Shown: piece after piece, positions 1,487 through 59,573 of the stretch
Position numbering within the stretch: the stretch's first letter is position 1
How the letters are laid out: each line of letters begins with the position of its first letter
Source: Candidatus Micrarchaeota archaeon
GTDB lineage: Archaea > Micrarchaeota > Micrarchaeia > Burarchaeales > Fermentimicrarchaeaceae
Length of the DNA stretch: 64,000 bases
Assembly: GCA_026396385.1 (NCBI GenBank)
Contig: JAPLWV010000051.1
Coordinates: 26,143 to 90,142, forward strand
Reading direction: 5' to 3'
Notes under the pieces: model-generated
What the model saw: only the letters and a program-made list of their open reading frames with translations
What the model was told of the DNA's origin: nothing
The model's database searches: none
Position numbers and translations under genes: made by a program

Positions 1487-2251
1487 CTAAACTTCCTCCG
1501 CAAACCTGGGTTCAAGTTTCATGAATATGAAATAACCTGCTAGTAAGGCCACGAAGGCAGTAACGTAGATGATTAGAATATCAGTAATGTTTGGCATTAT
1601 GTTGTATATCACTGTCTTTCTTGATGCTTCTATGATTCGTGCCATCGGATTGAGCAAGAACCAGCCTACATACTGCGGGGGGTATATGATCACTGGATAG
1701 ATGACTGGAGTTAGGAAGAAGCCTGCCCGCAGAAGAACTGCCCAGATGTACTGAACATCTTTGTAGTATACGTTCAGAGCGGATAGCGCAAGTGACAGGC
1801 CGACAACGATGACGAACTCGCCGAGTAATATGAATGGGAATATGAGTGCCGTTATGGGGGGGATGACCCCGAATAGGAGCATGAACAATAGGAAGACTAC
1901 AAGCTCAAAAAATACCATCAGCAGCGCTGTGGAACACATGCCAACAACAAGAACTTCCCTCGGAAAATAGACTTTCTTAATGAGGGTTGGTTTACTCGTA
2001 ATGCTATAAAGGCCCATCATGGTTCCTTTTTCCAAAAGGTCCCAGCAGATGATTCCGAGGAACAGGAAGAGTTGGTAATGCTCAACATTGAGCTTCATGA
2101 GGTAAGAGAATACGAAGTAAAGCACAATGAAGATGAGGAGAGGTTCTAGCAGTGACCAGAGCAAGCCGAGCACTGAATTCTTGTACCGGAGCTTCAGCTC
2201 GCTCAATGCTATTTTCTTAACAAGGTGCCTGTAGTTCCATATCTCAATCAT
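1487..2251 (-). CDS. ABC-2 type polysaccharide export permease (Wzm/TagG-like)
   Basis: Six hydrophobic segments. The N-terminus MIEIWNYRHLVKKIALSELKLRYKNSVLGLLW matches the ABC-2 family signature. The start ATG at 2251 overlaps the upstream GT4 stop as ATGA. The longer ORF to 2320 is probably an artefact. Confidence 0.8.
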   Translation of the reverse strand: MIEIWNYRHLVKKIALSELKLRYKNSVLGLLWSLLEPLLIFIVLYFVFSYLMKLNVEHYQLFLFLGIICWDLLEKGTMMGLYSITSKPTLIKKVYFPREVLVVGMCSTALLMVFFELVVFLLFMLLFGVIPPITALIFPFILLGEFVIVVGLSLALSALNVYYKDVQYIWAVLLRAGFFLTPVIYPVIIYPPQYVGWFLLNPMARIIEASRKTVIYNIMPNITDILIIYVTAFVALLAGYFIFMKLEPRFAEEV

Positions 2252-3333
2252 GCGGATATCTCCTCTTTGATTTTCTTTATAAATATCTCCTCTCGGAAGA
2301 GCTTTGCCCTTTCCTCGCATGCTTTTCTGTACTTTAGAGGATTCTTAGATACTTTCACTATCCCTTTTATTATATCTTTGATATCAGGTTTGACTAATTC
2401 ACCCGTAACCCCTGGCTCTACAGTTTCCAGGTAACCCCCTTCCGCAACTGCCACAACCGGCTTTCCGGCGGCCATTGCCTCGATTGGCGTTAAGCCGAAA
2501 TCCTCATCCATTGCCGTAACTATGAGACCTTTGCACGTGGAGTAGAGCTCTGCCAGCTTCTTGTCATCAACAGGCCCAAGCATTTTGATGTTAGATGGGA
2601 GTGCGGTGAACCTGCTCTGGTACGCCTCCGCATGGTCCCCAGCACTATATCCCCCAATTATCAGAAGCTTCTCTTTGGGCAACCTCCTGAAGGCTTCCAC
2701 CTGCAGTTCAATTCTTTTCTCAGGGTAGAGTCTGTTCACTGAAAGCCAGAAATCGCCGCTTTTCCTGAATTTGTACCTGCCAATCTGGACGGAGGGATGA
2801 ACCACCTTAGCGCCACGCCCATAGAACTTTCTCACTCTTTTCATGGTGTTTTCACTGTTTGTTATTATTTTTTTTACGTTCCTCACTGAGAGCTTATCGA
2901 AATAGGAGTGGATGCCGACCCATAGTAGGAAGAGAAGTTTAAAAAGCAGGTTGGGCTGCCTGTCCGCCATGGTATCCTTCAAATCGTAGAACGCCCTTAC
3001 CGGAGTGTGGCAGTACCACGTATTAGGTTTGTGCCTCCGTGCAGCATAGTGCGCCCAGTTACCGCTGAAAATAAAGAAATCATATTTTTCTGAAAAATTA
3101 CAAAATGCGAATAGTAGTGAGGCGTGAATCTGCTTTAGGGGCGGTATTTTCAGTGTCCCGCCCAGGCTTATAACACGCACATCCCCAAACCCCATCTTCC
3201 TTATTGAATCCTCATTGGCATCAGTGGTTATGACATCTGCACGCAAAGCTCTGGCCAGAGTGAGGACTGTCTTTTCCCCTCCCCCAATTGCATCTATGTA
3301 GTCATGAAATATCGCTATTCTCATCTTAGGCAC
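2248..3333 (-). CDS. glycosyltransferase family 4 (GT-B, retaining)
   Basis: C-terminal E-x7-E type motif region DEDFGLTPIEAMAAGKPVVAV, typical of the GT4 / group 1 family. Confidence 0.8.
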   Translation of the reverse strand: MPKMRIAIFHDYIDAIGGGEKTVLTLARALRADVITTDANEDSIRKMGFGDVRVISLGGTLKIPPLKQIHASLLFAFCNFSEKYDFFIFSGNWAHYAARRHKPNTWYCHTPVRAFYDLKDTMADRQPNLLFKLLFLLWVGIHSYFDKLSVRNVKKIITNSENTMKRVRKFYGRGAKVVHPSVQIGRYKFRKSGDFWLSVNRLYPEKRIELQVEAFRRLPKEKLLIIGGYSAGDHAEAYQSRFTALPSNIKMLGPVDDKKLAELYSTCKGLIVTAMDEDFGLTPIEAMAAGKPVVAVAEGGYLETVEPGVTGELVKPDIKDIIKGIVKVSKNPLKYRKACEERAKLFREEIFIKKIKEEISA

Positions 3334-4432
3334 GGTAAACTTCCTCCAACCTCTTAGCTATACTGCTCCATTTGTATTCATCAGGTTTAATTTTCACCTT
3401 CATCCCAAACAGCTGTTCTATTCCGTCCGCTATAGCTTTATCAGCTAGTTTTACAACTTTTCCATTGACTCCGTCTTTCACAAAGTCTTTAACCGCATTG
3501 TCGTCACTATCAACTGTCAGAACGGGAACTCCGCAGGCATTTGCTTCCAAAGCAACCATGCCAAAGCCCTCTCTGCTGGATGGCAGGGCGAGCACTTTGC
3601 TGGATTTTATGTATGAAAAAACCTTCTCATGGGCCGGGAGGAAGTTATAGAAATTTATATTGTTTTTTATTTTTAGAGAAGATACAAGATTGACAAGGTT
3701 TGATTTCTCTGGGCCTTCTCCAATTACGCAGCACCTTATTTTCGGATGTTTTGTTCTCAAAAGCGCAACAGCTCTCAGGAGCACATCAACATTTTTTTCT
3801 TTTATCAGCCTCCCTATGAAGATTACATCGAAATTCTTTTCTAGGGGCTTTGCCTTCTTCAATGATTCATAATCCACTCCGTTTGGAAACACAGGTATCT
3901 TCTTGTCCACTTTTCTCATAATCTTTCTTCTCGTAAATTCAGATACGGATATTATGTTGCTTGAGAGCGTAAGAGCCAGCCTTTCTACAATTTTCCCGCA
4001 AAACCCAAGAGGCCATCCCAGGTATTCATACCAGTAATCGCCCCATAGCTCGTACCAAGTTACGAACAGTTTAGACCCTTTTATTTTTGATACGATTTTG
4101 CATGAGAAAACCGGGAAATAGGGGAAACTCTGGCAGTTTATAACATCGAATCTACCTTCCTTTAGCAAAGCTGGAATTAAGGCTAGGGAGAAATGGATTG
4201 GTTTTAGTATAGAACGCCTTCCGCTGGCGGTGTAGAGTGGAGCAGGGCTGCATACGCCGTGCAGGTAAACTCCTTCTCTCTCTATGATATCCGGACCCTT
4301 CCAGAATTTAATTCCAAAGCAGTGAACCTCATGACAGTGGGAACTAAGCTCCTTTGAGATTTCATATATTCCGATCTCCACCCCTCCCTTTGTATATGGA
4401 TAAACTGCATCGTACACAAACGCTATCCTCAT
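3326..4432 (-). CDS. glycosyltransferase family 4
   Basis: REGFGMVALEANACGVPVLTVD motif. 8-bp overlap with the downstream GT4, consistent with an operon. Confidence 0.8.
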   Translation of the reverse strand: MRIAFVYDAVYPYTKGGVEIGIYEISKELSSHCHEVHCFGIKFWKGPDIIEREGVYLHGVCSPAPLYTASGRRSILKPIHFSLALIPALLKEGRFDVINCQSFPYFPVFSCKIVSKIKGSKLFVTWYELWGDYWYEYLGWPLGFCGKIVERLALTLSSNIISVSEFTRRKIMRKVDKKIPVFPNGVDYESLKKAKPLEKNFDVIFIGRLIKEKNVDVLLRAVALLRTKHPKIRCCVIGEGPEKSNLVNLVSSLKIKNNINFYNFLPAHEKVFSYIKSSKVLALPSSREGFGMVALEANACGVPVLTVDSDDNAVKDFVKDGVNGKVVKLADKAIADGIEQLFGMKVKIKPDEYKWSSIAKRLEEVYRA

Positions 4433-4442
4433 TCCATCCCCC

Positions 4443-5594
4443 TCATTCCTTCTTCGGAAGGACCAATATGCTTAGGAAGAATGCAGAGAAGATTGCCTGC
4501 ACGCCGAGAATTATAAGAGTTGACGAGAAGAGCGCCCTCCGCACTTCAAAAAGCGGTCCGAAGTTGCTGAGCACCCATAAATAGATTATGTCAAAACTTA
4601 GTATTACTCCCAGAACTATCATCATAATTCCCAGGAAAGAAGCTTTCTCCAGAGAGAGGTGCTTGTAGATAAATTCGATTAGCTTATCCTCTTCTTCTAA
4701 GTGGGATACAACAGCGTAGGTTTTTGTGAAGAGCCCCATTATCAGAACCTGAAAGCCGACTATGGCAAGAAGGCTTGCTATAATCATGGGGTGTAAATCA
4801 AGTGTAGTGCCAGCTATGGTCACGGGGCCTGGCACAAGGGCTAAGAGAAGGACTAAAGCGACTATGAACATGAGAGTGCCGGGTATTATGAAAAGGTAAT
4901 CCGGCGAGTACAGGAGCATAAACCTCAGATGCCTCCATCCATCGCTGAAGGAGGAGAGCTTTGACTGGGCTTTTCTTGGGTGGTATGTTATTGGAACCTC
5001 AGCTATTCTCAGCTTCTTCTTCACTGCCTTGACAATCATCTCAGAGGCGAATTCCATTCCCGTTGCATGCAAATCCAGCTTTTCAAAAGCATCCCTTCTT
5101 ATTGCTCGGAAGCCCGTGTGGACATCGCTTATGCTGGCACCAAAGAATGTGTTCAGGATGAAGGAGAGCAATGGATTGCCGATGTACCTGTGAAGCCACG
5201 GCATGGAATTAGGAAGAATTCTGCCCTTCACGCGGGAGCCTAGCACCAAATCCGCCTTGTTCTCGCGAAGGAACTTTATGAATCTAGGTATTTCGTGGAA
5301 ATCATATGTATCATCCGCATCACCCATTAGGATGTATTCTCCTTTCGCTGCCTCAAAGCCAGCCATGTATGCACTACCGTACCCTTCAGTGGGGGATTTA
5401 ACTACCTTCACTCCCATTCTCCTAGCTATTTCCGGCGTTTTATCCGTAGAAGAATCCGCGACAATTATCTCTCCTTTTATGTTTTCCCTTCTGAAAACCT
5501 CCACAATCTTACTTATGCAGTCTGCTATTGTGGTCTCCTCATTCTTGGCCGGCAATATCACGGAGAACTCAATTGTGTTTCCCAATCTTATCAC
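4443..5594 (-). CDS. GT2 glycosyltransferase of Dol-P-sugar synthase type (DPM1/AglJ/AglD-like) with C-terminal transmembrane anchor
   Basis: N-terminal GT-A motifs VILPAKNEETTI, DSSTDKT and DADDTY (DxD), followed by about 4 TM helices. Confidence 0.75.
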   Translation of the reverse strand: MIRLGNTIEFSVILPAKNEETTIADCISKIVEVFRRENIKGEIIVADSSTDKTPEIARRMGVKVVKSPTEGYGSAYMAGFEAAKGEYILMGDADDTYDFHEIPRFIKFLRENKADLVLGSRVKGRILPNSMPWLHRYIGNPLLSFILNTFFGASISDVHTGFRAIRRDAFEKLDLHATGMEFASEMIVKAVKKKLRIAEVPITYHPRKAQSKLSSFSDGWRHLRFMLLYSPDYLFIIPGTLMFIVALVLLLALVPGPVTIAGTTLDLHPMIIASLLAIVGFQVLIMGLFTKTYAVVSHLEEEDKLIEFIYKHLSLEKASFLGIMMIVLGVILSFDIIYLWVLSNFGPLFEVRRALFSSTLIILGVQAIFSAFFLSILVLPKKE

Positions 5595-5628
5595 GTTTAT
5601 ATATTGTTACTTAAATTTATAATCTGGT

Positions 5629-7875
5629 CTATGTTCTAACGAAGGATATTTCTATTTTCTCTATGAGCACACCAAGAGTCCGGAGGTCTGCTGTAAAGTT
5701 AGAGTAGTCCGCGGGCACCCACGTGTTGCTGTAAAATGAAAGTGTGGTGAGTTGGTGGGATTTGTATTTTTTCACATCAAAATGCAACTCTTCAAACTGA
5801 GTCTTGTTCAGGGTTAGATTTTCGAGTTGTAAATCGTTTATCTGGATTGTGAAGTTCAACTGGACTTCCTTCGGGCTACGATCTGCGAGCGTGATGTTGA
5901 TGTCCTTTACCACCCATCTCCCCGGTAGGCTTATGGATGCGTTTCCGTTTGTCCATCTGGATTTTCTACCCCCGACATTTTCAAGGTCATGAAAGCCCGT
6001 TGCCGAGAACAAATCGAGAGAATCACTCATTTCTATTGTAATTGCAGAGCAGTTCTCCCCGCATAGTATCGACTCGTCATGGTATCCACTCACAACCACG
6101 AAAGTTTCATTATCCTTTTTTTCAGTTACGTTATACTCAAAGAATGGGTATATATTCTTCTTTATCCAATTCGCCCACTCGGGATGCCAATCCATACTGT
6201 GCAGGTAGATTGTTCTGTTGTTCTGGAGTCCGTAATCCATAACTGCAAATACGGAAGATTTACTATCTATATGTGCCGCAGCAATCCAAACATCCTTAGA
6301 TGCTTTCAAGGGCACCATTCTAAATGCGCTTGGTCCATATGAGATGATTACGCTTCTGCCATCAATGATTGAATCCGCCTTCGTTAATAAGTTGAGCGCA
6401 AGCGAACGGACAGAACTTTCATAGATAGAAAATTCAAATACGTAGTTTATTAGGAAAGAGACAGGTATGGATAGTAAGACGATTAATAGCAGTAGTATTG
6501 CGACGTATCTCCCCAACTCACGCCTCTTTGTTAACAAGAAAATTATGGAGAGGAGAGAAATCGATATGGCGAACAAAGTTAGCTCTTCTAGCACGTGCGC
6601 TTCCGAATCTCTGAAATCGTTGTACCAGTCTTGCATGTACGGAGGAAGCAGATTTAGGAAAAGGATTCCGCTTATGAGGATAACGGCAAATGTGGAGTTC
6701 TGCATTCTCGGAAAATTGAGGTTAATAAGTTTATTTGATACTCTAATTATTTCAGCCAAGGATATCACGGACAATACCACTAGTGGTGGAATCGCCTCAA
6801 GGAGATAGCGAGTGTTGTGGATTGGTCCTCCGTGGTGCGTGTGGGTGGTGTAATATAAAATCTGCATTATGGGTATCCCGCATAGGACGAGAAGGTAATC
6901 GAATTTCTTATCCTCCCACAGCTTATTAGCACCAATGAGGCATATTGAGAGGAAGGGGGATGACTGTAGAAGGGCTTTTGTTAGACCGTCAGCATACACT
7001 GTTGATTGCATAGCTATCCCATCCACATTTGTGAATGATTGCGTGTCGAATATGTATTTGTAGAGGATTTGTAGGTGCATCAGAATTCCACTGAAAAAAC
7101 CATGAGAGTATACCCCGATTGCGGTTTCACTATTTACGTAGGAGGGAGTGTAGCCTGTAGAGAATGGATTTCCGAAACGTATTATGTTCGATATTGCGAG
7201 CAGGAAAAGGGCAGGTAAGGTGGAGAGGAAGGAAATCAGGGATTTGTAATTCTTCGCTATAACTAGGATTATGAGGGGTAAGAAAAACATGGCATTTGTG
7301 TACCTTATTCCGATTGAGAGAGCCAGTATGAATGCAGAGATGGCCGTGTCCCAGTACGTGACTCTCTCTTTAAGCAATAAGTAGAACGGCGCTAAAACTA
7401 AGAGAGCGGACAGCATGTGCGGCCATATGGCAGTTGCATATTGCGGGGAGAATGTGCAGAAAGAGAATATTAGAATCGCAGCTATCCCCCACCGGTCTCG
7501 GTACTTCAGCCCGTGCATAACTGAATAAATAATCCAAAGAATCGCAGAGAACGAGAGGGTATTCAGGAGGAAAAGCCCGCGTAGACCGAATAATGCAAAG
7601 AATGGATAGGCCATGAATCCATAGTTGCCGGGGAATGAGGGGTAAAGATTATCGTTGTTTGTCCACCAAGGGAATATATATATGCTTCTGAATTTCAGTG
7701 CTGGATAGCCATTCTCGACGTTGAATCCCTGTGGCAATTGACTGGCCTGGAGAAAGTAGCTTGCCTCATCAATCATGTATAAGCCAGGAACGGTTTTTAT
7801 TACGAATAGCAATGTGATGGCGAGGATTAGGAATTTTATGCGAAAGTCTATTTTCTTAGTTTCTTGCAGACGCAT
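5629..7875 (-). CDS. polytopic GT-C superfamily glycosyltransferase, PMT_2 / GT39-GT83-like (748 aa)
   Basis: At least 12 predicted TM helices. The first extracytoplasmic loop carries YMIDEASY (the DE motif of PMT/ArnT-type GT-C enzymes). About 270 aa of C-terminal soluble domain. Confidence 0.6.
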   Translation of the reverse strand: MRLQETKKIDFRIKFLILAITLLFVIKTVPGLYMIDEASYFLQASQLPQGFNVENGYPALKFRSIYIFPWWTNNDNLYPSFPGNYGFMAYPFFALFGLRGLFLLNTLSFSAILWIIYSVMHGLKYRDRWGIAAILIFSFCTFSPQYATAIWPHMLSALLVLAPFYLLLKERVTYWDTAISAFILALSIGIRYTNAMFFLPLIILVIAKNYKSLISFLSTLPALFLLAISNIIRFGNPFSTGYTPSYVNSETAIGVYSHGFFSGILMHLQILYKYIFDTQSFTNVDGIAMQSTVYADGLTKALLQSSPFLSICLIGANKLWEDKKFDYLLVLCGIPIMQILYYTTHTHHGGPIHNTRYLLEAIPPLVVLSVISLAEIIRVSNKLINLNFPRMQNSTFAVILISGILFLNLLPPYMQDWYNDFRDSEAHVLEELTLFAISISLLSIIFLLTKRRELGRYVAILLLLIVLLSIPVSFLINYVFEFSIYESSVRSLALNLLTKADSIIDGRSVIISYGPSAFRMVPLKASKDVWIAAAHIDSKSSVFAVMDYGLQNNRTIYLHSMDWHPEWANWIKKNIYPFFEYNVTEKKDNETFVVVSGYHDESILCGENCSAITIEMSDSLDLFSATGFHDLENVGGRKSRWTNGNASISLPGRWVVKDINITLADRSPKEVQLNFTIQINDLQLENLTLNKTQFEELHFDVKKYKSHQLTTLSFYSNTWVPADYSNFTADLRTLGVLIEKIEISFVRT

Positions 7876-7885
7876 CGTATCTCCC

Positions 7886-10414
7886 TCATGGCGATTTTTT
7901 TATTGATATCTCTTCTATTATGGTTCCAAGCTCCCGCATGTCGCCATTCTTGATGAATTTTTCGGGTATCCAAGGTTCTGATTGTATCAGAAGTTCGGAG
8001 TATGGTCCGGTGGTACATTCCGCTGATATTTGTAGAATATTATCACCATCTGTCAAATTGCTTGAGAGAAGGCACTTGTTGAAGTAAACGGAGATATTCA
8101 TTGGTGCGTTTAGTGGTTTTTTGGAGTTGTCTATTCTAATGCGCAATGTATAGTCTGAATCCGCAGGTGTCGGGAAGGTAATGTGTGCATTCTTCATCGT
8201 CCACCTGAACTCCCTTCCGTCCGATGAAGTCTCGCAACTGAAGAACCCTGTGATGTAGGGGTAGTGGGAGGGACAGAAGTGGATAGTAATCTCGCCCTCC
8301 TGCAGGGCGACATCGGAACTTGTTACTTCGAATAAATCGTAAGATATCTTTCGCTGGGTTATGTTTTGCGGGAACCCGTACTGGGTTCCTTCCCCCATGA
8401 GAGGTACTTCTATTCCTTTACTTTCTTTGTAATTGAGGAACAAGCCAAAGTTTATCAACTTGTCAGCCAGGTTGTCAGAGGGATTTAGAACATATATCTT
8501 ATGGTCCTCGCTCTGCCACTTTTTGAACTGATTCCCGATAGCGGAGTAGTTGTGGTTGTATACAATGAGTGACTTCCTATCGAATATGTAGTTTAGAGGT
8601 GCGGATAATTTCAGGGATTGCCAGTTATACTTGTCAAATACCAATATAGAATTATTTTCCGTGGAGTTTGAGATTCCCTGGATGTAGTTAATCATCCCCT
8701 CATACTCGACATGGTTGAGGAGAGGGTAATTTGGTTGGATAGATAACAGTGTTAGAATCCCTAAGAGGATCCAGAAAATTATTTTTCCAAGAGGTTTCTC
8801 TTTGAAGGAGAGTTTGGATACGGATTCCGCGAGGTATGCAATGCATACCAGAATGAACGGTATTACGACAGGCACGAACCTCCTTATCCACCACGGTTGA
8901 TCGGCATACATTTTGGCGTTTGCTATGAAATAAACCGAATAGATAAGCATAACTCCGAGGAATAAGTACGTTTCGTTGTATGGTTTTTTGTAGAGAAGGA
9001 GGATTGAGCCGCACACGGCCAGTATTATTCCGATGGGGCCTGCTACGTACCAAGAGATTTTAACCATGTTGTACGTATCCACTATCCCTTCCGTGGGTCT
9101 TATGAAGAACGAGTAGAGTATCGCTGTGATGATGAGAAAAGCTACAAGGTACTGTAGGTATGGTAAAAGCTTCCTGAATCCTTTCAATTTTTTTGATATT
9201 TGGCTTCGGAAAAAATCAAACACAAAAAGAATTAAGAAGGTAAGTAGAATGAGAATCGCGAATAGATGAGGTTGTTCGATTAGGGCTGACTCATAGCTGA
9301 AGGTTACCCGGAATATGTCATATGTGTAGGGGGTGGATACCGCCAAAGCAGTGAGGAACGCAGAGATGAACAGAACTGAAAAAGGAATAATGAAGTAGAG
9401 ATATTCCATTTTCAATTTCTCCTTTATCCTGAGATATACGAAGAAGAGGAAAAGCGGAGCGGCGAGCAGAAATGCGTCAATTCTCGTCAAGAAGATTCCA
9501 CCCAAGCACATTGCTGAAATTATTCCGAAGTATTTGTTATGAGTTCTGTTGAATAAGATAAACAGAGCCAACCCACTGAATGTTAGCAGTTGGGTGAAAA
9601 CCTCGGTACTTGGCTCGCGGGCGTACCATATTTCGGCGAAGTTCAGGATTAATAGGAACGTGGAAAGCAGAGCAACTTTATCGTTGAATAACAGTTTTAT
9701 TAAGAAGAAAACGCTCAGCACAGCCAGAATTGCGAAAATGGGTGTTATGTAAAGGCTTGATTCCAGACCGAATAGCGAGTAGAGTATTGCTATCCAAGTG
9801 GGGTACAAGTATAAGAACTGCGGAGTTATCTCCCCCCTGTCTTTATCTGTGATATAGAAGCCCAGGTACTGGAGGCCTTGGTGGTAGGATTTGTTCAGGA
9901 TTTCTACTCTTTTCTCCATTATATAGAAAACATCTCTTGAGGAATCATTCATATCACTCAAAATTGGATCGTTGATAACCACCGAGCCGGTTTTTGCAAT
10001 GTTCGCCCCCGTATTAACATAAACTCCTTGGTCCCGCCCCCCGACTATCCACTCGTACGGCTTGAGGAACAAAGACGACGCAAGAAGAAGGAGGATTATC
10101 AGCAGGATTGAGGTAGAAGTTAAGGCGGGTTTTTGGAATAAATTCGTATCGAACCGACCATACGATTTAATAGCGAGTGGTATGCTCACCAAGAGCAGCA
10201 GCACGGTAAGGTTCGGGATGGAGAAGAAGCCCAGTTCAGCTAGAATCAGCCCCAACCACCCCGAGAGAATTATGTTGCCTAGAAGGATTGAAAGAACTGT
10301 TTCAAGAAATCCGAGCTTTAATTTTTTATTATGGAATGCGCAGTATAGCAAGAAACCTGGAATTAAGAAAATCAATAGTGATACGGGCAGAAGAAAGGCA
10401 GTTGAAACATCCAT
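7886..10414 (-). CDS. large polytopic membrane protein, probable GT-C glycosyltransferase (842 aa)
   Basis: Many TM helices in the first ~560 aa. Acidic first loop GGRDQGVY. About 280 aa of C-terminal soluble region rich in N-x-S/T. Adjacent to other glycosylation genes. Confidence 0.5.
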   Translation of the reverse strand: MDVSTAFLLPVSLLIFLIPGFLLYCAFHNKKLKLGFLETVLSILLGNIILSGWLGLILAELGFFSIPNLTVLLLLVSIPLAIKSYGRFDTNLFQKPALTSTSILLIILLLLASSLFLKPYEWIVGGRDQGVYVNTGANIAKTGSVVINDPILSDMNDSSRDVFYIMEKRVEILNKSYHQGLQYLGFYITDKDRGEITPQFLYLYPTWIAILYSLFGLESSLYITPIFAILAVLSVFFLIKLLFNDKVALLSTFLLILNFAEIWYAREPSTEVFTQLLTFSGLALFILFNRTHNKYFGIISAMCLGGIFLTRIDAFLLAAPLFLFFVYLRIKEKLKMEYLYFIIPFSVLFISAFLTALAVSTPYTYDIFRVTFSYESALIEQPHLFAILILLTFLILFVFDFFRSQISKKLKGFRKLLPYLQYLVAFLIITAILYSFFIRPTEGIVDTYNMVKISWYVAGPIGIILAVCGSILLLYKKPYNETYLFLGVMLIYSVYFIANAKMYADQPWWIRRFVPVVIPFILVCIAYLAESVSKLSFKEKPLGKIIFWILLGILTLLSIQPNYPLLNHVEYEGMINYIQGISNSTENNSILVFDKYNWQSLKLSAPLNYIFDRKSLIVYNHNYSAIGNQFKKWQSEDHKIYVLNPSDNLADKLINFGLFLNYKESKGIEVPLMGEGTQYGFPQNITQRKISYDLFEVTSSDVALQEGEITIHFCPSHYPYITGFFSCETSSDGREFRWTMKNAHITFPTPADSDYTLRIRIDNSKKPLNAPMNISVYFNKCLLSSNLTDGDNILQISAECTTGPYSELLIQSEPWIPEKFIKNGDMRELGTIIEEISIKKSP

Positions 10415-10484
10415 CGGCTCACGACAAGTTTGTATTTATCATCTTATATCAAAGTTTAAATTCTTAACTATTGATATCCTTATT

Positions 10485-11420
10485 GTGAAGCTGGCTATTG
10501 TTATACCCGCACACAACGAGGAGAAAACCATAGGCAAAGTCATCCGCGAGATCCCGAGGAGGATACCGGAAATTAAGGAAGTGGAAGTGATAGTGGTTGA
10601 TGACGGCTCCACGGATAGAACGGTCTCTGAAGCACTCAAGGCTGGAGCGGATAGATTCGTACAGCATAAGGTAAACAAAGGTTTGGCAGTCTCTTTCAGG
10701 GATGGATTGGATGCCGCTTTGGAGAGCGGGGCAGACATCATAGTGAACACAGATGGAGATTTCCAGTACAACCAAGGGGAGATTCCAACGTTGATAAAAC
10801 CTATAATGGATGGAAAGGCGGACTTGGTGCTGACTGACAGAAATGTTTGGAACCTGCGGCATATGCCCGTGAGTAAAAAGATCGGAAATAAGATCGCAAC
10901 TTATATTGTTAGGTTCCTGGCAGGTTTCCCAGTAAAAGATGCGCAGAGCGGTTTTAGAGCTTACTCGAGAGAAACGGCCTTGCAACTGAATATTCTTTCC
11001 GATTATACCTATGTTCAAGAGATGATAATACAGGCAGTATTCAAGAAAATGAAGATAGCGCAGGTTCCTTGCGATTTCAGGGCGAGAGAGGGGGAAAGTA
11101 GGCTTATCAGTAACATCTGGTCATATGCGAAAAGAGCGGGGTTGACAATTGTTCTGACTTACGTTCATTACAAGCCATTGAAAATTTTCTTGAGCATTGG
11201 ATTGTTTTTGATGCTGTTGGGCTCGGTTCTCGGACTGAGAGTGCTGATCCATTACCTCTCAACTGGCTTAGTTAGTCCGTATATCCCGACGGCAATCCTG
11301 ACTGCCATCCTGTTGATAGTGGGATTTCAGGTTTTAATGATGGGTCTGGTAGCGGATTCTATTAACGCCAACCGAAGGATTATGGAGAAGATCTTGTATT
11401 TAATGAAAAGAAACAAGTGA
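10485..11420 (+). CDS. GT2 glycosyltransferase, dolichol-phosphate sugar synthase-like, C-terminal TM anchor
   Basis: IVIPAHNEEKTIGKVI, VVDDGSTDRT and NTDGDFQ (DxD) motifs, then 2 TM helices. The ORF track start at 10062 overlaps the convergent 842-aa gene. The first in-frame start after that gene ends is GTG at 10485. Confidence 0.75.
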   Translation: MKLAIVIPAHNEEKTIGKVIREIPRRIPEIKEVEVIVVDDGSTDRTVSEALKAGADRFVQHKVNKGLAVSFRDGLDAALESGADIIVNTDGDFQYNQGEIPTLIKPIMDGKADLVLTDRNVWNLRHMPVSKKIGNKIATYIVRFLAGFPVKDAQSGFRAYSRETALQLNILSDYTYVQEMIIQAVFKKMKIAQVPCDFRAREGESRLISNIWSYAKRAGLTIVLTYVHYKPLKIFLSIGLFLMLLGSVLGLRVLIHYLSTGLVSPYIPTAILTAILLIVGFQVLMMGLVADSINANRRIMEKILYLMKRNK

Positions 11421-11426
11421 TAACGC

Positions 11427-11978
11427 ATGGGTTTATTGTCACCTTTTTTAAGAAAATGGAGAATAAGGAAAGCGTCGAGATGGGTACAGGGCAAAAGAAT
11501 TCTCGATTGTGGATGTGGCGATGGTAGTCTATTGGGTATAATCGGCGAGAATGTGGATTACCTGGGAGTGGACATAAACGAAAAAGTGATAAATGAGGCG
11601 AAAGGGAGATACAGGGGGGCAAACTTCATTTTGCTTAATGTGGAGAAGGGAGATTTGGGGAGGTATGGTAAATTCGACTCGGTAGTTGCATGTGCATTAT
11701 TGGAGCATTTGAACAATCCTAAAAAATTTATATCCAAAATTGTCAAACTTCTCTCTAGAGATGGGAGAATTATAATCACAACTCCAGCACCCATTTCACA
11801 TAATATATTGGGGTATGGGTCTACTATTGGAATTTTCGAAAGGGAGGCTTTTGAAGAGCATAAACATTACTTGATTTACGATGATTTTAGGAGGATGGCA
11901 AAAGAGTTAAAACTTACTATAAAGCATTATGAGAGATTCCAATTTGGCCTAAACCAACTTGTTGTCCTATCAAAATGA
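11427..11978 (+). CDS. class I SAM-dependent methyltransferase
   Basis: Motif I ILDCGCGDGSLL; post-I acidic residue (LGVDIN). Confidence 0.75.
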   Translation: MGLLSPFLRKWRIRKASRWVQGKRILDCGCGDGSLLGIIGENVDYLGVDINEKVINEAKGRYRGANFILLNVEKGDLGRYGKFDSVVACALLEHLNNPKKFISKIVKLLSRDGRIIITTPAPISHNILGYGSTIGIFEREAFEEHKHYLIYDDFRRMAKELKLTIKHYERFQFGLNQLVVLSK

Positions 11979-12061
11979 GGATGCTGGGAGCTGCTGCTTC
12001 TGAATAACGAAAATTGGATTCCTAGCTAAGATTTAAATCCTTAGACATAGAATGAGATGCT

Positions 12062-12589
12062 ATGAATAGATACTCCAGAATTCTGTTGATAGCAGCGGAA
12101 GTAATCCTAGGCTCACCAATCTTCTGCTTGCCTGTCTTCAGCCATCTAAAAAACGGCTTCTTCAGATTAGTTCTGAACGCGGACATAAATTTGAGTGTCG
12201 GCGACAGCACATTCATAATCCCGATACATGCAAGTGAGAGAAGTTTCATAAAAATTGGCAGTAATGTTAGGGTTGAGAGAAATTCTTTGGTGGATTGGAG
12301 CGGTGAACTCGAGATGGGATCGAATGTCACAATATCACAAGGAGTTTTCATCTATACCCACAAGCATCAATTCGCTGCGGGAAAGGGAGTCGGAGAAGCA
12401 TCGGCGACTAGTATGAGAATTGGCAGTAACGTTTGGATTGGCGCAAGGTCGATAATACTGCCTTCCGTAGAATGCATCGGGGACAATGTGATGATAGGTG
12501 CAGGCTCCGTGGTTACTAAAAGTGTTGAAAGCGGCGCCGTAATTGTCGGAAATCCTGCGAAAAATATTAAGGAGATAACACTCAGTTAG
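12062..12589 (+). CDS. hexapeptide-repeat (left-handed beta-helix) sugar O-acetyltransferase
   Basis: Tandem hexapeptide repeats IGSNVWIGARSIILPSVECIGDNVMIGAGSVVTKSV, as in the WbbJ / maltose or galactoside acetyltransferase family. Confidence 0.75.
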   Translation: MNRYSRILLIAAEVILGSPIFCLPVFSHLKNGFFRLVLNADINLSVGDSTFIIPIHASERSFIKIGSNVRVERNSLVDWSGELEMGSNVTISQGVFIYTHKHQFAAGKGVGEASATSMRIGSNVWIGARSIILPSVECIGDNVMIGAGSVVTKSVESGAVIVGNPAKNIKEITLS

Positions 12590-12657
12590 TAAGAAGCATA
12601 ATAAGCACATCTCGAATTTGCAAGAGTAAGATTGGCTTCATAAAGGAAGGGGAAGAG

Positions 12658-14103
12658 ATGAAGACAAGCGTGAGCAAAGGCACTTTTTATTTGCTGGTAG
12701 CACAAGCTATCTTTCTAGGGGTAGGATATGCAGTCCACATAGCTTTAGGGAGATTGATGGGCCCTGAACTGTATGGTGTCTTTGGAGTTGTTCTTGGGTT
12801 GATGTCTATTGTGATGTTGATTCCCAGCTCGGGAGTTCCAATTGCAGTTTCAAAATTTATATCCTGCAATGAGAAGAGTGCTGGAAGCATACTGAAGGAG
12901 AGTCTGAAGATACAGCTTATTCTATGCACAGTAATCTTTCTGATTTATTTCTCATCTGCTGGCCTGATAGCAACCGCACTTTCAGATGAGAGGTTCATCC
13001 TTTACGTGAGGCTCACCTCTGTCTCGATATTCCTTGTTGGCATCAGCAGCGTTTATTCTGGCTATTTGAACGGAGTTAGGCACTTCGGGAAGCAGAGCCT
13101 TGTTTCGATAGCGCATTCCCTGACGAAATTGACCGCCATTCTCTTAGTAGTGATGGGGCTGGGGGTTCTGGGGGCTGTTTTTGGGTACCTGCTCTCCTAT
13201 CTTGCAGCCCTCCTACTGGCGCTCTGGTTTAGCAGATTGGTAACGGGGGATGGAAAATTTGAATGGAGAAAGATTCTGTATTTCTCAATGCCTGTGATAG
13301 CGTACTCAGTTTTCAGCAATCTCTTGCCGAATATTGACATACTCATGATTAAATCTTTACTTAGGAATGACAGTTTAGTCGGCTACTACAACTCAGCCTC
13401 AACAATCGGGAGGCTGTTCTACTTCTTGGTGGGAACTCTGTTTGCAACCCTCATACCGGCCATTTCGGTTTCGATAGCAGCCGGGAACCAGAAAAAGGCC
13501 AACAGATACGTCACGAGTTCCATAAGGTACAGCCTTATGCTGCTCATTCCAATAAGCCTAGTGGTGAGCGCAACTGCGAGCGATTTGGCCTCTTTTGTCT
13601 ATTCAAGCGCATTTGCGCAGGCGGGAGAGCCCCTCTCCATCTTCATTTTCGGCATAAGCTTTTTCACTTTATTGAGTGGATTAGCTAGTATGCTGATCGC
13701 AGCGGGGAAACCGAAGCACTGTATGCTTATACTCGGATTGGTCTGTCTGCTCTCTCTTGCGTTGAACTTTCTCTTAATACCAGTGATGGGAATAAAGGGA
13801 GCAGCTCTGGCATCAACAATTAGCAGTTTTGTGGGCTTGGTTGTTGCCTACTATTATGTCACGGGAGAATTCGGATGTCTTATCAGCATGAAGTCTCTTG
13901 CTAGAATATCACTAGCTTCCCTCTTGATCTACCTGCCGAGCCTATACATTGTACTCCCAAACAAATGGCTCCTTCCACTAGAATATGCTTTTCTTTTCGG
14001 GTTTTATTTTGTAGTTCTAATTGTAATTAAAGAATGGAGGAAGGAGGATTTTGAGATAATTAAGAAACTTGTTCCGAAAAGATTCAGTACAGGTATCCTT
14101 TAA
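12658..14103 (+). CDS. MOP-superfamily oligosaccharide flippase (Wzx/AglR-like polysaccharide biosynthesis protein)
   Basis: 481 aa, about 12-14 TM helices, and the overall topology and length of the Wzx/RfbX family, within a glycosylation cluster. Confidence 0.7.
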   Translation: MKTSVSKGTFYLLVAQAIFLGVGYAVHIALGRLMGPELYGVFGVVLGLMSIVMLIPSSGVPIAVSKFISCNEKSAGSILKESLKIQLILCTVIFLIYFSSAGLIATALSDERFILYVRLTSVSIFLVGISSVYSGYLNGVRHFGKQSLVSIAHSLTKLTAILLVVMGLGVLGAVFGYLLSYLAALLLALWFSRLVTGDGKFEWRKILYFSMPVIAYSVFSNLLPNIDILMIKSLLRNDSLVGYYNSASTIGRLFYFLVGTLFATLIPAISVSIAAGNQKKANRYVTSSIRYSLMLLIPISLVVSATASDLASFVYSSAFAQAGEPLSIFIFGISFFTLLSGLASMLIAAGKPKHCMLILGLVCLLSLALNFLLIPVMGIKGAALASTISSFVGLVVAYYYVTGEFGCLISMKSLARISLASLLIYLPSLYIVLPNKWLLPLEYAFLFGFYFVVLIVIKEWRKEDFEIIKKLVPKRFSTGIL

Positions 14104-14115
14104 TTGCGGGGCAAT

Positions 14116-15441
14116 TCATGTGGAGTTTATTTCTTTAGCTTTGTTCATAGCGCTTCTTATGCAAGCAGCCATGTTCATGTACTTAAACTCCGCGAATCTG
14201 CCGCAGGATTCGATTCTTCTCTTCTTAAGGAATTTGAACACTTTTGAACTATTCTTATTGTAATCCAAATCGTATATTACGTAAGCGTACTCCGACCTTC
14301 TGACATTCCTGTAGGATATCTTCGAATTCCTTGCGAAACCCAGCCTCTCCAAATCCTTTACGACTTGCTTCAAAATTTTATCATCGCTCTGTTTCAACAA
14401 CGGGTCGTTGGGGAGGCAGGTTATCTCCACCAGTACGGATGACTTGCCTTCTGGAGCGACATACCTGGAGAAATTGAACGGGAAGCTCAACCTGTTGAAG
14501 TCGCCATCTTCCTCAGCAGGTATGTACATCCAAGAGATGTTGTTTATCCTCGGCTCGTCAATCCCAACCATCACCGTGATGAGGGAGTTGTATTTCAGGT
14601 TGTTTTTCGCTTCTTTCACATCCTTCGGCACTCCATCCATGGAATCTATCAAGTCAGGAATGGGCATGCAGGAAACAAGCTTGTCATATTTTCTCTCCTC
14701 CTTTCCATCTGAAACAGTGAATTTACCTCCTTCCCTTGCAACTGACTTCACTTCAAAATTGTATGTAATCTTATCTCTGAGCTTCTCCTCCATCGGCTTA
14801 ACAAGCGCATTTATTCCTCCCTGAATTGGATAGTAGAAAATGAGGTTCTGGTGGTATCCTTCAGTTTTGATTCCAAGAGACGATTTTATTATGTCTTCAG
14901 CAGGCGGCATGGGTATCCCGCTTGCCAGCAACTCCAGAGACAGTTTTCCAGGAGGGTAATTCCAGATTTTTCTGTTGTAGGGGATGAGGTATTTCTCAGT
15001 TATCCCTTTCCCGAATGTATAATACATCCACTCCTGGAAATTTGTTGGTTTCTTCACCTTTCCCTTGCTCACTTCTATGAGGTTTTTAATAAATGATGAA
15101 ATGCATTCGTAATTGTCCTGCTTGGGCAGCTGGTAAAGACCATTCTCAAACGGGTATTTGATGTACCTTCCCTTGAAAAGAATCTTGGAGTTTCTCTTCC
15201 TTTTCACCCAGTTTCCGTGAAGCAATTTTCGGTATAAATTGAAAACATCCTTGTCCTTTGTGAATATCACATGAGAGCCGCCATAGTCAAAGGTGAACCC
15301 TTCCTCGGTCAGGCTTCTGCAGAGTCCTCCGCACTCAGAATTTTTCTCCAATATCTCAAAATCCTTCTTGAGATGGAAACCCAAAGTCAAACCGCTTAAG
15401 CCGCCACCAAGAATGCCGATTTTCATGGAAAAACCTTTCAT
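14116..15441 (-). CDS. glf: FAD-dependent UDP-galactopyranose mutase-like flavoprotein
   Basis: N-terminal Rossmann IGILGGGLSGLT. Glf-like blocks ECGGLCRS...YGGSHVIFTKDKDVFNLY and C-terminal GRFAEFKYMNMA (compare E. coli Glf GRLATYKYYNMD). The true start is possibly MKIGIL at 15426. Confidence 0.55.
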   Translation of the reverse strand: MKGFSMKIGILGGGLSGLTLGFHLKKDFEILEKNSECGGLCRSLTEEGFTFDYGGSHVIFTKDKDVFNLYRKLLHGNWVKRKRNSKILFKGRYIKYPFENGLYQLPKQDNYECISSFIKNLIEVSKGKVKKPTNFQEWMYYTFGKGITEKYLIPYNRKIWNYPPGKLSLELLASGIPMPPAEDIIKSSLGIKTEGYHQNLIFYYPIQGGINALVKPMEEKLRDKITYNFEVKSVAREGGKFTVSDGKEERKYDKLVSCMPIPDLIDSMDGVPKDVKEAKNNLKYNSLITVMVGIDEPRINNISWMYIPAEEDGDFNRLSFPFNFSRYVAPEGKSSVLVEITCLPNDPLLKQSDDKILKQVVKDLERLGFARNSKISYRNVRRSEYAYVIYDLDYNKNSSKVFKFLKKRRIESCGRFAEFKYMNMAACIRSAMNKAKEINST

Positions 15442-26240: not shown

Positions 26241-26667
26241 ATTGATACACCATCCTTTCTCCTTTACTAATCGAGACATTTGCTTGAATTATATCACCGA
26301 CGGCAATTCCAGATAGATTTACATCTGTATTACTTGGACCCAGTGGCGGCATATCTACGGTAGTAGCTGATGTTCCCCATTGAAATACGAAATTGTTGAT
26401 ATCGCTTTTTTCCAATTTTATCGTGCCATCGCGTTTATCTGAATCATAAGAGATAAGGTCCAGAATCTCAAGCCTTGCGCTTTGCGTTTGAACATTCAAA
26501 ACTCTCGCCCTAATAACTGCCGAATCAGTAAGTGGTTTTGGAGGTATGACTTCTGTTGAATCGTTAGATCCCGTAGTACTATTTGGGTTAATTGTATTTG
26601 GCGAAAGTGACTCTTTAGTAATACAGCCTGAAAAAAATAGGATTGCACAGACTAGTGAAACCAGCAA
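26224..26667 (-). CDS. hypothetical lipobox/secreted protein
   Basis: N-terminal MLVSLVCAILFFSGC hydrophobic segment ending in a lipobox-like SGC. Ser/Thr/Asn-rich linker. Confidence 0.5.
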   Translation of the reverse strand: MLVSLVCAILFFSGCITKESLSPNTINPNSTTGSNDSTEVIPPKPLTDSAVIRARVLNVQTQSARLEILDLISYDSDKRDGTIKLEKSDINNFVFQWGTSATTVDMPPLGPSNTDVNLSGIAVGDIIQANVSISKGERMVYQYEKTN

Positions 26668-29661: not shown

Positions 29662-29719
29662 GTTTATGGTATTATAAAAAGAACTTAAAAATGTTCCCAA
29701 TTTGTTCGGTGAAAACCGA

Positions 29720-41990: not shown

Positions 41991-42353
41991 CTAAATATAT
42001 ACCTTCTTGAGCAGCCTGTCACCAACGCGTATTTTTCTCCTTTTAGCCCCACCTGCCCCCATCTCAAGTATGTATCTAGCAGGCTTAGCAGGTGTTATTT
42101 TTAATGCGAATGGCTTTATGCGCTCCCTGATGTCCACAACAACTCCTTTTGAGTTTAGGAAAACTGCATCAAAGGGAAAGAATACAAAAAGGGAGTGGAT
42201 TGAGCTGAGTTCTGCTGATTCCGAGGGCATAATGAAGAGCAGTGGTTTTGAAATACTGCTTCTGAACATCAGCCCCCTCGCCCTCTTGAAAAATGTGTCA
42301 GCAAGCTCGAGCTCATCTTCCAAATCGCCTTTTCCTCGTCTCATAGTACTCAA
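41991..42353 (-). CDS. DUF192 (COG1430) family protein
   Basis: ADTFFKRARGLMFR motif; 120 aa. Confidence 0.55.
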   Translation of the reverse strand: MSTMRRGKGDLEDELELADTFFKRARGLMFRSSISKPLLFIMPSESAELSSIHSLFVFFPFDAVFLNSKGVVVDIRERIKPFALKITPAKPARYILEMGAGGAKRRKIRVGDRLLKKVYI

Positions 42354-54567: not shown

Positions 54568-54623
54568 GATAGGTTTATTACTGGAATGATTATAAGTATT
54601 TGCAGAGGAACTGCATAGCCATA

Positions 54624-56224: not shown

Positions 56225-56308
56225 ATGCTCACCCCATTCGAATATGTTTATAATATATGATGTTAATATTTATAAATGTTATTATCATATTAGTATGGAG
56301 GGGGAATA

Positions 56309-59571: not shown

Positions 59572-59573
59572 TC

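Follow-up and report, generated by a model that had tools for sequence, protein, structure and literature searches.

Three membrane proteins encoded in the 64,000-nt stretch of DNA analysed here (the window) are GT-C-type glycosyltransferases. Their most likely role is to transfer single sugars from lipid carriers, outside the cell, onto surface glycans. Two of them lie in tandem on the minus strand (748 aa, 5629-7875; 842 aa, 7886-10414) and the third on the plus strand (474 aa, 43058-44482), exactly where an earlier sequence-only reading had placed their open reading frames. It is very probable that these enzymes face outward and use lipid-phosphate-sugar donors; for the more specific proposal, that the tandem pair decorates a Wzm/Wzt-exported glycan after its export in the manner of a 'three-component' system, our confidence is about evenly balanced. 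No new mechanism is implied, as the same logic is already established for Haloferax AglD/R/S, bacterial Gtr and GT136. What the window does provide is a concrete set of genes with which lipid-sugar-dependent decoration of glycans at the outer face can be tested in DPANN archaea, which probably attach to host cells through their surface glycans.

Family assignment and fold

The 474-aa protein is PMT_2/ArnT-like, scoring 28.9 bits with Pfam PMT_2, whose gathering threshold is 26.1; its ORF begins with TTG, and the NCBI annotation starts at M5, giving 470 aa and the name 'GT39 family protein'. The 842-aa protein had been thought to match no family, which is no longer tenable given a weak PMT_2 match (19.4 bits), the presence of PF13231 in 15 of 30 homologues and the NCBI name 'glycosyltransferase family 39 protein'. 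In a Pfam scan of all three proteins (E<=1), PF02366 and MIR were absent and only PMT_2 (PF13231) was found; what the NCBI name 'GT39 family' records is thus no more than homology to PMT_2. STT3 and AglB_core likewise had no match in any of the three, unlike in the two AglB paralogues of the window (15438-17390 and 47016-49685).

The 748-aa protein, labelled 'hypothetical protein' by NCBI, can now be placed in the GT-C superfamily. The sole curated family it matches is NF047440 (LA3751_2_3_fam; 79.6 bits, E 2e-22, residues 15-388), an uncharacterised putative glycosyltransferase family of Leptospira (LA_3751/LA_3752) that lacks a CBM-like domain. This score is far below the family cut-off of 200, as is that of the 842-aa protein (21.9 bits), and both proteins are relatives of the LA_3751/LA_3752 family rather than members. 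They are also related to each other, the two family profiles aligning over 474 columns (hhalign, 97.8 %, E 8.7e-13).

Searches against PDB chains gave no meaningful sequence match for the three proteins or for the family profiles, so the link to solved GT-Cs is made by fold comparison only. With a low-confidence model of the 748-aa protein, the 14 top Foldseek matches were all GT-C proteins, with ArnT the best (E 2.5e-6). The proteins combine a large polytopic domain structurally like solved GT-Cs with a conserved acid that opens the first core external loop. Profile searches placed none of them in a non-glycosyltransferase membrane family, and the GT-C identity proposed earlier is upheld.

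Conserved aspartates and membrane topology

By a hydropathy scan, the 474-aa protein has 11 hydrophobic segments, the 748-aa protein 12 and the 842-aa protein 17, in agreement with the earlier estimate of at least 11 TM helices each; AF2 secondary structure gives ~13 TM helices for the 748-aa protein and ~16 for the 842-aa protein. The latter starts with 3 extra, conserved TM helices; its canonical GT-C core (~13 TM helices) comes next, then an external alpha/beta domain at residues ~570-690 and, at the C-terminus, a beta-sandwich; the 748-aa protein likewise carries an external alpha/beta domain and a related C-terminal domain after its helices.

Each protein has an acidic motif, and all three motifs noted earlier are present and conserved. 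In the 474-aa protein it is FVDEGQY (residues 32-38; 43151-43171, plus strand), with D34-E35 invariant across 14 homologues. In the 748-aa protein, MIDEASY (residues 34-40; 7756-7776, minus strand) follows immediately on TM1, and D36 is at least 90 % conserved across 15 homologues, the family consensus being IDExNY. In the 842-aa protein, GGRDQGVY (residues 125-132; 10019-10042, minus strand) opens an external loop after TM4 and not after TM1, so that its description as the first external loop holds for the core and not for the whole protein: TM4 aligns with TM1 of the 748-aa protein, and D128 with D36, in the profile alignment. D128 is invariant in 24/24 homologues, at a mean column identity of 25 %, as are G125 and Y132, and is a putative catalytic base.

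Topology was predicted solely from our own hydropathy and positive-inside script together with sequon density. Lys and Arg residues in inside versus outside loops numbered 21 vs 11 for the 842-aa protein, 17 vs 7 for the 748-aa protein and 19 vs 10 for the 474-aa protein. The N-terminus of the 748-aa protein is rich in Lys and Arg and is therefore predicted to be inside, with the MIDEASY loop outside. The loop and C-terminal domains contain 1.6-3.7 N-X-S/T sequons per 100 aa, with 1.9 in the GGRDQGVY loop and 3.7 in the post-TM region of the 748-aa protein (residues 477-748); the corresponding values within the window are 0.31 for cytoplasmic proteins and 2.0-2.7 for secreted ones. By the positive-inside rule and sequon density, the acidic loops are thus predicted to be extracytoplasmic and not cytoplasmic, as the sequence-only reading had assumed. 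The active site would be formed around the conserved Asp of the first canonical external loop, facing the cell exterior.

A shared C-terminal domain with a CBM-like fold

The tandem proteins share an unnamed C-terminal domain (7889-8323, minus strand, residues ~698-842 of the 842-aa protein; 5632-6108, minus strand, in the 748-aa protein), recognisable by BLASTP (E 4e-8) and by the 842-family profile (E 2e-19). Fold comparison identifies it as a CBM35/22-like beta-sandwich, resembling characterised jelly-roll CBMs of the CBM35/22/6 type, and it matched no Pfam or CAZy family. Because the AF2 model of the 748-aa protein is poor (pLDDT 60, and < 40 in the C-terminal domain), the fold of its domain is taken from homology to the 842-aa protein. 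The domain has no counterpart in the other detected relatives of the 748-aa protein (14 family homologues of 459-631 aa) and is missing from the copy of the 842-type enzyme in L004, a related genome. It is also found on PMT_2, Wzy_C and GT87 membrane enzymes. This accessory domain, present in 175 representative clusters, accompanies membrane glycan enzymes that depend on polyprenol, archaeal and bacterial alike. Its fold and the precedents of Emb, AftD and GT136 suggest that it binds carbohydrate.

The operon and its neighbours

The minus-strand operon has the order GT-C, GT-C, GT2-TM, GT4, GT4, Wzm, Wzt. The two tandem GT-C genes are followed by a GT2 of 383 aa with four C-terminal TM helices (4443-5594; Pfam Glycos_transf_2), two cytoplasmic GT4 (GT-B) glycosyltransferases (2248-4432; Glycos_transf_1 and Glyco_transf_4), and the ABC-2 permease Wzm with the ATPase Wzt (295-2320; ABC2_membrane, and ABC_tran with Wzt_C at 119.9 bits). 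To judge from its domains, including the carbohydrate-binding Wzt_C, the Wzm/Wzt pair is predicted to be an ABC exporter of a lipid-linked glycan. Divergently from the 842-aa gene, the plus strand encodes a GtrB-like GT2 of ~312 aa with a GTG start and two C-terminal TM helices (10485-11420), and then, by Pfam, a SAM methyltransferase (11427-11978), a hexapeptide acyltransferase (12062-12589) and an AglR-like flippase of the MOP/Wzx type (12658-14103). An AglB/STT3 oligosaccharyltransferase of 650 aa lies beyond on the minus strand (15438-17390; Pfam STT3 at 73 bits with AglB_core, NCBIfam archaeo_STT3). A long ORF at 10062-11420 was rejected as a spurious upstream extension of the GtrB-like gene, since its initial 141 codons run antisense to the 842-aa gene and the GT2 domain begins after the in-frame GTG at 10485.

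All three DPM1-type GT2s noted earlier are present, at 4443-5594 (minus), 10485-11420 (plus) and 45081-45800 (minus), and a GT2 resembling polyprenyl-phosphate-sugar synthases adjoins each GT-C. Their best NCBIfam matches, none of which reaches the equivalog cut-off, are AglJ, dolichyl-phosphate hexose transferase, PpgS, ArnC or PgfS; for the AglJ/Dol-P-hexose-synthase-like protein at 4443-5594 they are AglJ (162.7 bits), then Dol-P hexose transferase, then PpgS. The adjacency and synteny of these AglJ/GtrB/DPM1-like genes suggest that the GT-Cs use polyprenyl-phosphate-linked sugar donors. Among window ORFs of at least 150 aa there is no phosphoglycosyltransferase, and one AglJ-like GT2 may for this reason start the chain on Dol-P; the GT2 at 4443-5594 may either make the donor for a GT-C or itself initiate the glycan on Dol-P, and not every GT2 need supply a GT-C. 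The cluster at 4443-14103 holds the parts of a three-component system of the Gtr, GT136 or CsbB-YfhO type, with the two GT2-TM proteins as synthases, the MOP-family protein as flippase and the two GT-Cs as transferases; a small GtrA-type flippase was not found in it. Horizontal acquisition of the region as an island was also considered; the window shows an even GC content throughout (0.41-0.48). Rfam and tRNA scans of the 64,000 nt were empty.

A separate core locus around the 474-aa enzyme

In the case of the 474-aa GT-C, the divergent neighbour is a cis-prenyltransferase of dolichol/polyprenol synthesis (42313-43008, minus strand; Pfam Prenyltransf, 274 bits). Downstream on the minus strand follow a methyltransferase (44479-45081), the soluble DPM1-like GT2 of 239 aa (45081-45800) and a protein of the geranylgeranyl-reductase family (GGR; 45797-46957). 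A second AglB/STT3 paralogue (889 aa; 47016-49685, plus strand; STT3 27.3 bits, AglB_core 25.7 bits) stands at the far end, a placement retained in the related loci L008 and L009. In relatives with 50-60 % identity the synteny comprises PAC2, DUF192, cis-prenyltransferase, GT-C, methyltransferase, DPM1-like GT2, GGR and AglB. The 474-aa enzyme is probably AglS-like, doing the same kind of work in a separate conserved core locus.

Proposed mechanism and known systems

In the mechanism that we favour, the GT4 enzymes would build a glycan chain on a lipid carrier in the cytoplasm, and the chain would probably receive a methylation cap recognised by the C-terminal domain of Wzt before export through Wzm/Wzt. 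The donors, dolichyl- or polyprenyl-phosphate-monosaccharides, would be made by the neighbouring GtrB/AglJ/DPM1-like GT2s on the cytoplasmic face and then flipped outward, with the MOP-type protein at 12658-14103 as the candidate flippase. Outside, the two GT-Cs would add side-chain or terminal sugars while their shared CBM-like domain grips the glycan acceptor. The adjacent AglB would probably then move the finished glycan to surface proteins, unless the glycan remains lipid-anchored. A glycan acceptor is indicated because the tandem pair has CBM-like domains and lies in an ABC-transporter polysaccharide operon.

In Haloferax volcanii, AglD makes Dol-P-Man, AglR helps to flip it and AglS transfers the sugar outside to an Asn-linked glycan (PMC3871713). 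The proposal that the window goes beyond the AglB-centred pathway of model archaea is therefore not supported, since the logic is the same: a Dol-P-sugar is synthesised inside, a Wzx/MOP-type protein helps it across, and a multi-spanning transferase uses it outside on a glycan handled by AglB. In the window, the synthase, flippase and transferase types are all adjacent to AglB. The window proteins differ from AglS, in a comparison of architecture alone, in being much larger and in carrying CBM-like domains, and their locus has an ABC exporter, of which the Haloferax agl cluster makes no use.

The closest bacterial counterpart is found in the ABC-transporter O-antigen of Citrobacter youngae O1. 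Its GT-C enzyme, GT136, carries the catalytic Asp behind TM1 and uses a C-terminal CBM to bind the polymer in unmodified form; its partners are a MATE flippase and a synthase of the polyprenyl-P-sugar (PMC11127046). The window shares with this enzyme (ORF12) and with Gtr systems, which glucosylate the O-antigen by GtrA/GtrB/Gtr* in Shigella and Salmonella, an Asp past the first core TM helix together with a C-terminal beta-sandwich, a polyprenyl-P-sugar synthase and a MOP/MATE-type flippase. The setting is also GT136-like, being a locus of Wzm and Wzt(CBM) with GT4s and a methyltransferase in which the GT-C is the variable gene. In contrast to the GT136 system, the window comes from an archaeal host, which makes dolichol the presumable carrier; a single operon holds a pair of GT-Cs and a pair of GT2-TM synthases; these synthases are GT2 (hexose-type) and not UbiA-type; and final attachment is probably by AglB and not by WaaL. 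By architecture, which is the sole basis of this comparison, the 842-aa enzyme further differs from GT136 in its 3 extra N-terminal TM helices and additional alpha/beta domain. Mycobacterial EmbA/B/C and AftD, which appear among the structural hits, are also GT-Cs whose C-terminal carbohydrate-binding modules hold a growing polysaccharide, although they are far larger and use decaprenyl-P-arabinose, and neither UbiA nor DprE genes lie near the window GT-Cs.

Alternative readings

The GT-Cs might instead extend a flipped lipid- or Asn-linked N-glycan, as do ALG3/9/12-like or AglS-like enzymes, with Wzm/Wzt merely flipping a short Dol-P-oligosaccharide. This is possible, if rather doubtful: Wzt_C and the methyltransferase point to a polymer that is capped, and CBMs on GT-Cs have so far been documented for polysaccharide acceptors (Emb, AftD, GT136). 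Acceptor size is the sole difference between N-glycan extension and post-export decoration.

It is unlikely that the 842-type enzyme is an en-bloc ligase, similar to an oligosaccharyltransferase, that moves the Wzm/Wzt polymer from its lipid to a protein, lipid or cell-wall acceptor. Pfam gives no STT3 match for the protein, whose external domain lacks a WWDYG-type motif, its WWxRR lying between TM helices, and the window has a true AglB gene at a distance of 5 kb and a second at 47 kb. A GtrB-like Dol-P-sugar synthase is conserved divergently beside the 842-type gene, and polymers of this kind are, as far as known, ligated by Wzy_C-family enzymes and not by PMT_2 ones.

A little less probable still are PMT-like protein O-glycosyltransferases that would attach mannose or another hexose from a Dol-P-sugar directly to Ser/Thr residues on the S-layer or on other surface proteins, perhaps with the tandem pair as a Pmt1-Pmt2-like heterodimer. 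The sequence-only reading had raised protein O-mannosylation, which finds no specific support here given the missing PF02366 and MIR, the CBM-like domains and the polysaccharide operon. Within the PMT_2 superfamily, the window enzymes would differ from ArnT (GT83) and PMT (GT39) in that the acceptor is probably a glycan and not lipid A or Ser/Thr; that one of the three is the long-sought archaeal protein O-glycosyltransferase is a less likely alternative to the 'O-antigen-like' reading given below. Finally, it is very improbable that the proteins are non-enzymes, whether GT-C-fold proteins without catalysis like PIG-U/GAB1 or membrane proteins of other function, as invariant residues include the loop Asp and many others of the external loops, the genes are tightly set within glycosylation operons and catalytic GT-Cs outscore PIG-U by far.

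Variation among relatives

The operon is syntenic in L004 and in Ca. Fermentimicrarchaeum limneticum (L015), where the flanking genes are 66-87 % identical and the 842-type GT-C only 53-56 %. The 383-aa GT2 is 81-83 % identical in both, the ~312-aa GT2 75-76 % with its divergent pairing to the 842-type gene kept, and the MOP-type flippase 87 % in Ca. F. limneticum. The 748-type gene is absent in Ca. F. limneticum and broken in L004, and both GT2-TM genes are intact in each of the two; GT2s and GT-Cs need not pair one to one. In gtr loci, gtrA/B are conserved and the adjoining gtr GT-C is variable and serotype-specific, and we liken to this the conserved neighbours beside the divergent 842-type GT-C. 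Like the serotype-converting gtr genes of bacteria, a GT-C gene is present in some close relatives and absent from others.

Taken together, the data would accommodate a DPANN episymbiont of the Micrarchaeota with an 'O-antigen-like' capped glycan that is exported by Wzm/Wzt, decorated by strain-variable GT-Cs docking via an unnamed CBM family, and attached to protein by AglB. We put this forward only tentatively, with clearly less than even confidence. Close relatives carry the 748-type gene intact, broken or not at all, and the 842-type gene would be the fastest-evolving of the operon. If true, it would mean serotype-like variation of surface glycans in an archaeon that lives by cell-cell contact.

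Further afield, a genome scan that used an alignment of the 9 closer sequences as query located 842-family genes near Wzt and/or GT4 clusters in Methanoperedens, Chloroflexi, Chlamydiota and others. Wzt lies within 10 kb in 7/27 loci, several of which are short contigs only. For the 748-aa protein, the surroundings of an Altiarchaeota homologue (L010) were not informative as to glycosylation; the gene of another homologue (P0039) follows directly on UbiA, DprE1-like and DprE2-like genes, a donor pathway for polyprenyl-P-pentofuranose.

Conserved acidic loops in three membrane proteins

The three ORFs reported in the sequence-only reading were recovered with their lengths and motifs: the 748-aa protein at 5629–7875 (−), with MIDEASY at residues 34–40; the 842-aa protein at 7886–10414 (−), with GGRDQGVY at residues 125–132; and the 474-aa protein at 43058–44482 (+), with a TTG start and FVDEGQY at residues 32–38 (the NCBI start lies four codons downstream, giving 470 aa). 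Across 24 homologues of the 842-aa protein D128 never varies, at a mean column identity of just 25%; D36 is conserved to at least 90% in the 748 family, and D34–E35 are invariant in the 474 family. The acidic residues are thus conserved family features rather than chance occurrences. Hydropathy indicated 11 (474-aa), 12 (748-aa) and 17 (842-aa) hydrophobic segments, in line with the earlier count of at least 11 transmembrane (TM) helices each, and the secondary structure of AF2 models gave ~16 TM helices for the 842-aa and ~13 for the 748-aa protein. The description of the acidic loop as the first external one holds for the 748-aa protein but not for the 842-aa protein, which has three additional conserved helices ahead of the canonical core and carries the loop after its fourth helix; the profile alignment pairs its TM4 and D128 with TM1 and D36 of the 748-aa protein.

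The positive-inside rule predicts that the three Asp loops and the three C-terminal domains are all external. As a second, independent indicator of topology we used the density of N-X-S/T sequons: for every 100 aa, 16 cytoplasmic proteins of the window have 0.31 and two secreted proteins 2.0–2.7. The C-terminal regions contain 3.7 (748-aa), 2.1 (842-aa) and 1.6 (474-aa) sequons per 100 aa, and the 842-aa Asp loop contains 1.9, with 0–0.9 in the membrane parts of the proteins; neither indicator places the acidic loop in the cytoplasm.

Family and fold assignment

All three proteins have identical NCBI entries on a 106-kb contig of a Candidatus Micrarchaeota MAG; the 842- and 474-aa proteins are named there 'glycosyltransferase family 39 protein' and the 748-aa protein 'hypothetical protein'. 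Pfam PMT_2 matches the 474-aa protein with 28.9 bits, above the gathering threshold of 26.1, and the 842-aa protein with 19.4 bits, under the threshold; the Pfam scan returned no match for the 748-aa protein, which scored 79.6 bits (E = 2e-22) against the NCBIfam LA_3751/LA_3752 putative-glycosyltransferase model, under its cut-off of 200. Sequence searches against PDB chains, using the single proteins as well as family profiles, detected no match for any of the three. The AF2 model of the 842-aa protein is confident (pLDDT 88, pTM 0.87), the top 36 Foldseek matches are GT-C enzymes without exception, and this predicted structure settles the assignment of the protein as a GT-C. The 748 and 842 family profiles align over 474 columns (97.8% probability, E = 8.7e-13), and although the 748-aa model is weak (pLDDT 60), its first 14 Foldseek matches are GT-Cs, with ArnT the best (E = 2.5e-6); the 474 family is linked to the 842 family at 94.7%. 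Neither profile searches nor fold comparison displaced the proteins into non-glycosyltransferase membrane families.

A shared C-terminal domain

The C-terminal domain of the 748-aa protein is homologous to the CBM-like beta-sandwich of its 842-aa neighbour (BLASTP E = 4e-8; 842-family profile E = 2e-19). Since the neighbour has the domain and the 14 further homologues (459–631 aa long) lack it, the 748-aa protein is, by sequence comparison, a chimera of an LA_3751-like core and a C-terminal module of its neighbour's type. No further ORF of the window contains the domain, and no Pfam family matches it. When 1.84 billion representative proteins were scanned in full with HMMER, the domain turned up in 175 clusters, mostly C-terminal on proteins of 700–1000 aa, sometimes in tandem or stand-alone; among 56 scanned proteins, the partners were PMT_2 (14/56), Wzy_C (2/56) and GT87 (1/56). 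The value added is modest: the 748-aa hypothetical protein is placed in the GT-C superfamily, an unnamed CBM-like domain is defined, and the gene is found to vary between strains, as described below.

The operon of the tandem pair and its relatives

On the minus strand, the 842-aa GT-C is followed first by the 748-aa GT-C and then by a GT2 whose C-terminal part has four TM helices, a pair of GT4s, Wzm and Wzt, all overlapping or 10–34 bp apart; Wzt carries the Wzt_C carbohydrate-binding domain. The divergent genes encode a GtrB-like GT2 that has two TM helices at its C-terminus, along with a methyltransferase, a hexapeptide acyltransferase and a MOP/Wzx-type flippase, beyond which lies AglB (15438–17390, 650 aa). 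Both GT2-TM proteins match best AglJ, dolichyl-phosphate hexose transferase, PpgS, ArnC and PgfS. The ORF at 10062–11420 (+; 452 aa) was rejected as drawn: its first 141 codons are an artefact overlapping the 842-aa gene on the opposite strand, and GTG 10485 is the most likely start of the GtrB-like GT2 gene. Given that start, 10415–10484 is a 70-bp AT-rich divergent promoter region with TATA-like boxes. Between flippase and AglB, 14116–15441 (−) encodes an FAD amine-oxidase/PRK07208-type oxidoreductase that weakly resembles UDP-galactopyranose mutase and for which either a sugar or the lipid carrier could be the substrate.

The operon is conserved in two relatives. In the closest complete genome, Ca. 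Fermentimicrarchaeum limneticum Sv326, the flippase, both GT2s, both GT4s, Wzm and Wzt are 66–87% identical to those of the window, the 842-type GT-C is only 56% identical, and the 748-type gene is absent, a 30-bp gap standing in its place. In the metagenomic contig L004, a remnant of the 748-type gene (4371–5550) persists as ORFs of 164 and 198 aa that span residues 18–179 and 507–748, with ~327 codons deleted, and the 842-type gene ends ahead of the CBM-like domain. A fast-evolving or dispensable GT-C amid conserved neighbours resembles serotype-converting gtr loci. Members of the 842 family that are more distant come from Methanoperedens, Methanoregulaceae, many Chloroflexi, Acidobacteria, Chlamydiota and WOR-3, repeatedly in GT4-rich clusters and often with Wzm/Wzt_C, GT2 and a second PMT_2 GT-C. 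Polyprenyl-P-pentofuranose donor pathways have as their signature a UbiA-family, a DprE1-like and a DprE2-like gene. On another contig (L011, 2500–7836), P0039, a 611-aa homologue of the 748-aa protein, lies directly downstream of genes for UbiA-family, FAD_binding_4 (DprE1-like) and short-chain dehydrogenase (DprE2-like) proteins, a neighbourhood that predicts polyprenyl-P-arabinofuranose or -ribofuranose as its donor.

The locus of the 474-aa protein

A cis-prenyltransferase gene flanks the 474-aa gene on one side; on the other are genes for a methyltransferase, a soluble DPM1-like GT2, a geranylgeranyl-reductase-family protein and a second AglB/STT3 paralogue (47016–49685, +; 889 aa; STT3 27 bits, AglB_core 25.7 bits). 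This order, second AglB included, is kept in relatives at 50–60% identity, and the region looks like a core dolichol-glycosylation locus. The presence of two oligosaccharyltransferases, of 650 and 889 aa, points to two routes of N-glycosylation in what is a reduced DPANN genome.

Proposed mechanism

Extracytoplasmic glycosylation of the 'three-component' type is the reading with the best support, and for it we infer donor, acceptor and order of steps alike: a GT2 would make the Dol-P-sugar inside the cell, a flippase would carry it across the membrane, and outside a GT-C would pass the sugar to a pre-formed glycan. In the case of the tandem pair, a GT4-built glycan exported by Wzm/Wzt and putatively held by the CBM-like domain is the most likely acceptor, with final attachment to protein probably by AglB. 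A close bacterial analogue is the ABC-transporter O-antigen locus of Citrobacter youngae O1, with a Wzt CBM and a methyl-phosphate terminator, which encodes a polyprenyl-P-ribose synthase, a MATE flippase and a GT-C of family GT136 that has an essential Asp after TM1 and a C-terminal CBM that binds the unmodified polymer yet is dispensable (PMC11127046). The sequence-only reading was sound in its observations and in part in its interpretation; its proposal of a route beyond the AglB-centred pathway of model archaea was overstated, because Haloferax AglD/AglR/AglS provides a precedent (PMC3871713).

A scan of the window ORFs of at least 150 aa detected no phosphoglycosyltransferase (WecA/AglH-type PF00953 or PF02397). 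One AglJ-like GT2 may therefore initiate the chain on Dol-P instead of supplying a GT-C, which fits the finding that relatives without a working 748-type gene keep both GT2s intact. O-mannosylation of proteins by these GT-Cs is a less likely alternative that lacks specific support, as the proteins contain no PMT or MIR domain and carry CBM-like domains instead.

Other genes of the window

Glycosylation genes are dense in the window and include dTDP-rhamnose pathway genes (55748–60335), a UDP-glucose dehydrogenase, several epimerases, and further GT4 and GT2 genes (54600–55742 and 60343–63734). A free-standing HNH + NUMOD3 homing-endonuclease-like ORF (57193–57924, +; 243 aa) sits between an RmlD-like gene (56309–57196) and a dTDP-glucose-dehydratase-like gene (57912–58874), overlapping each by a few bases. 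A 610-aa serpin (27961–29793, −; Pfam Serpin, E = 1e-120) has an N-terminal extension of ~230 aa and 12 N-glycosylation sequons and is unusual in a small DPANN genome, and a 1355-aa secreted protein (22212–26279, −) has three LamG/concanavalin-like domains besides an M6 (immune inhibitor A) peptidase domain and contains 37 sequons. The housekeeping genes (pelota, ABCE1, PAC2, diphthamide synthase and CCA-adding enzyme) are consistent with an archaeon.
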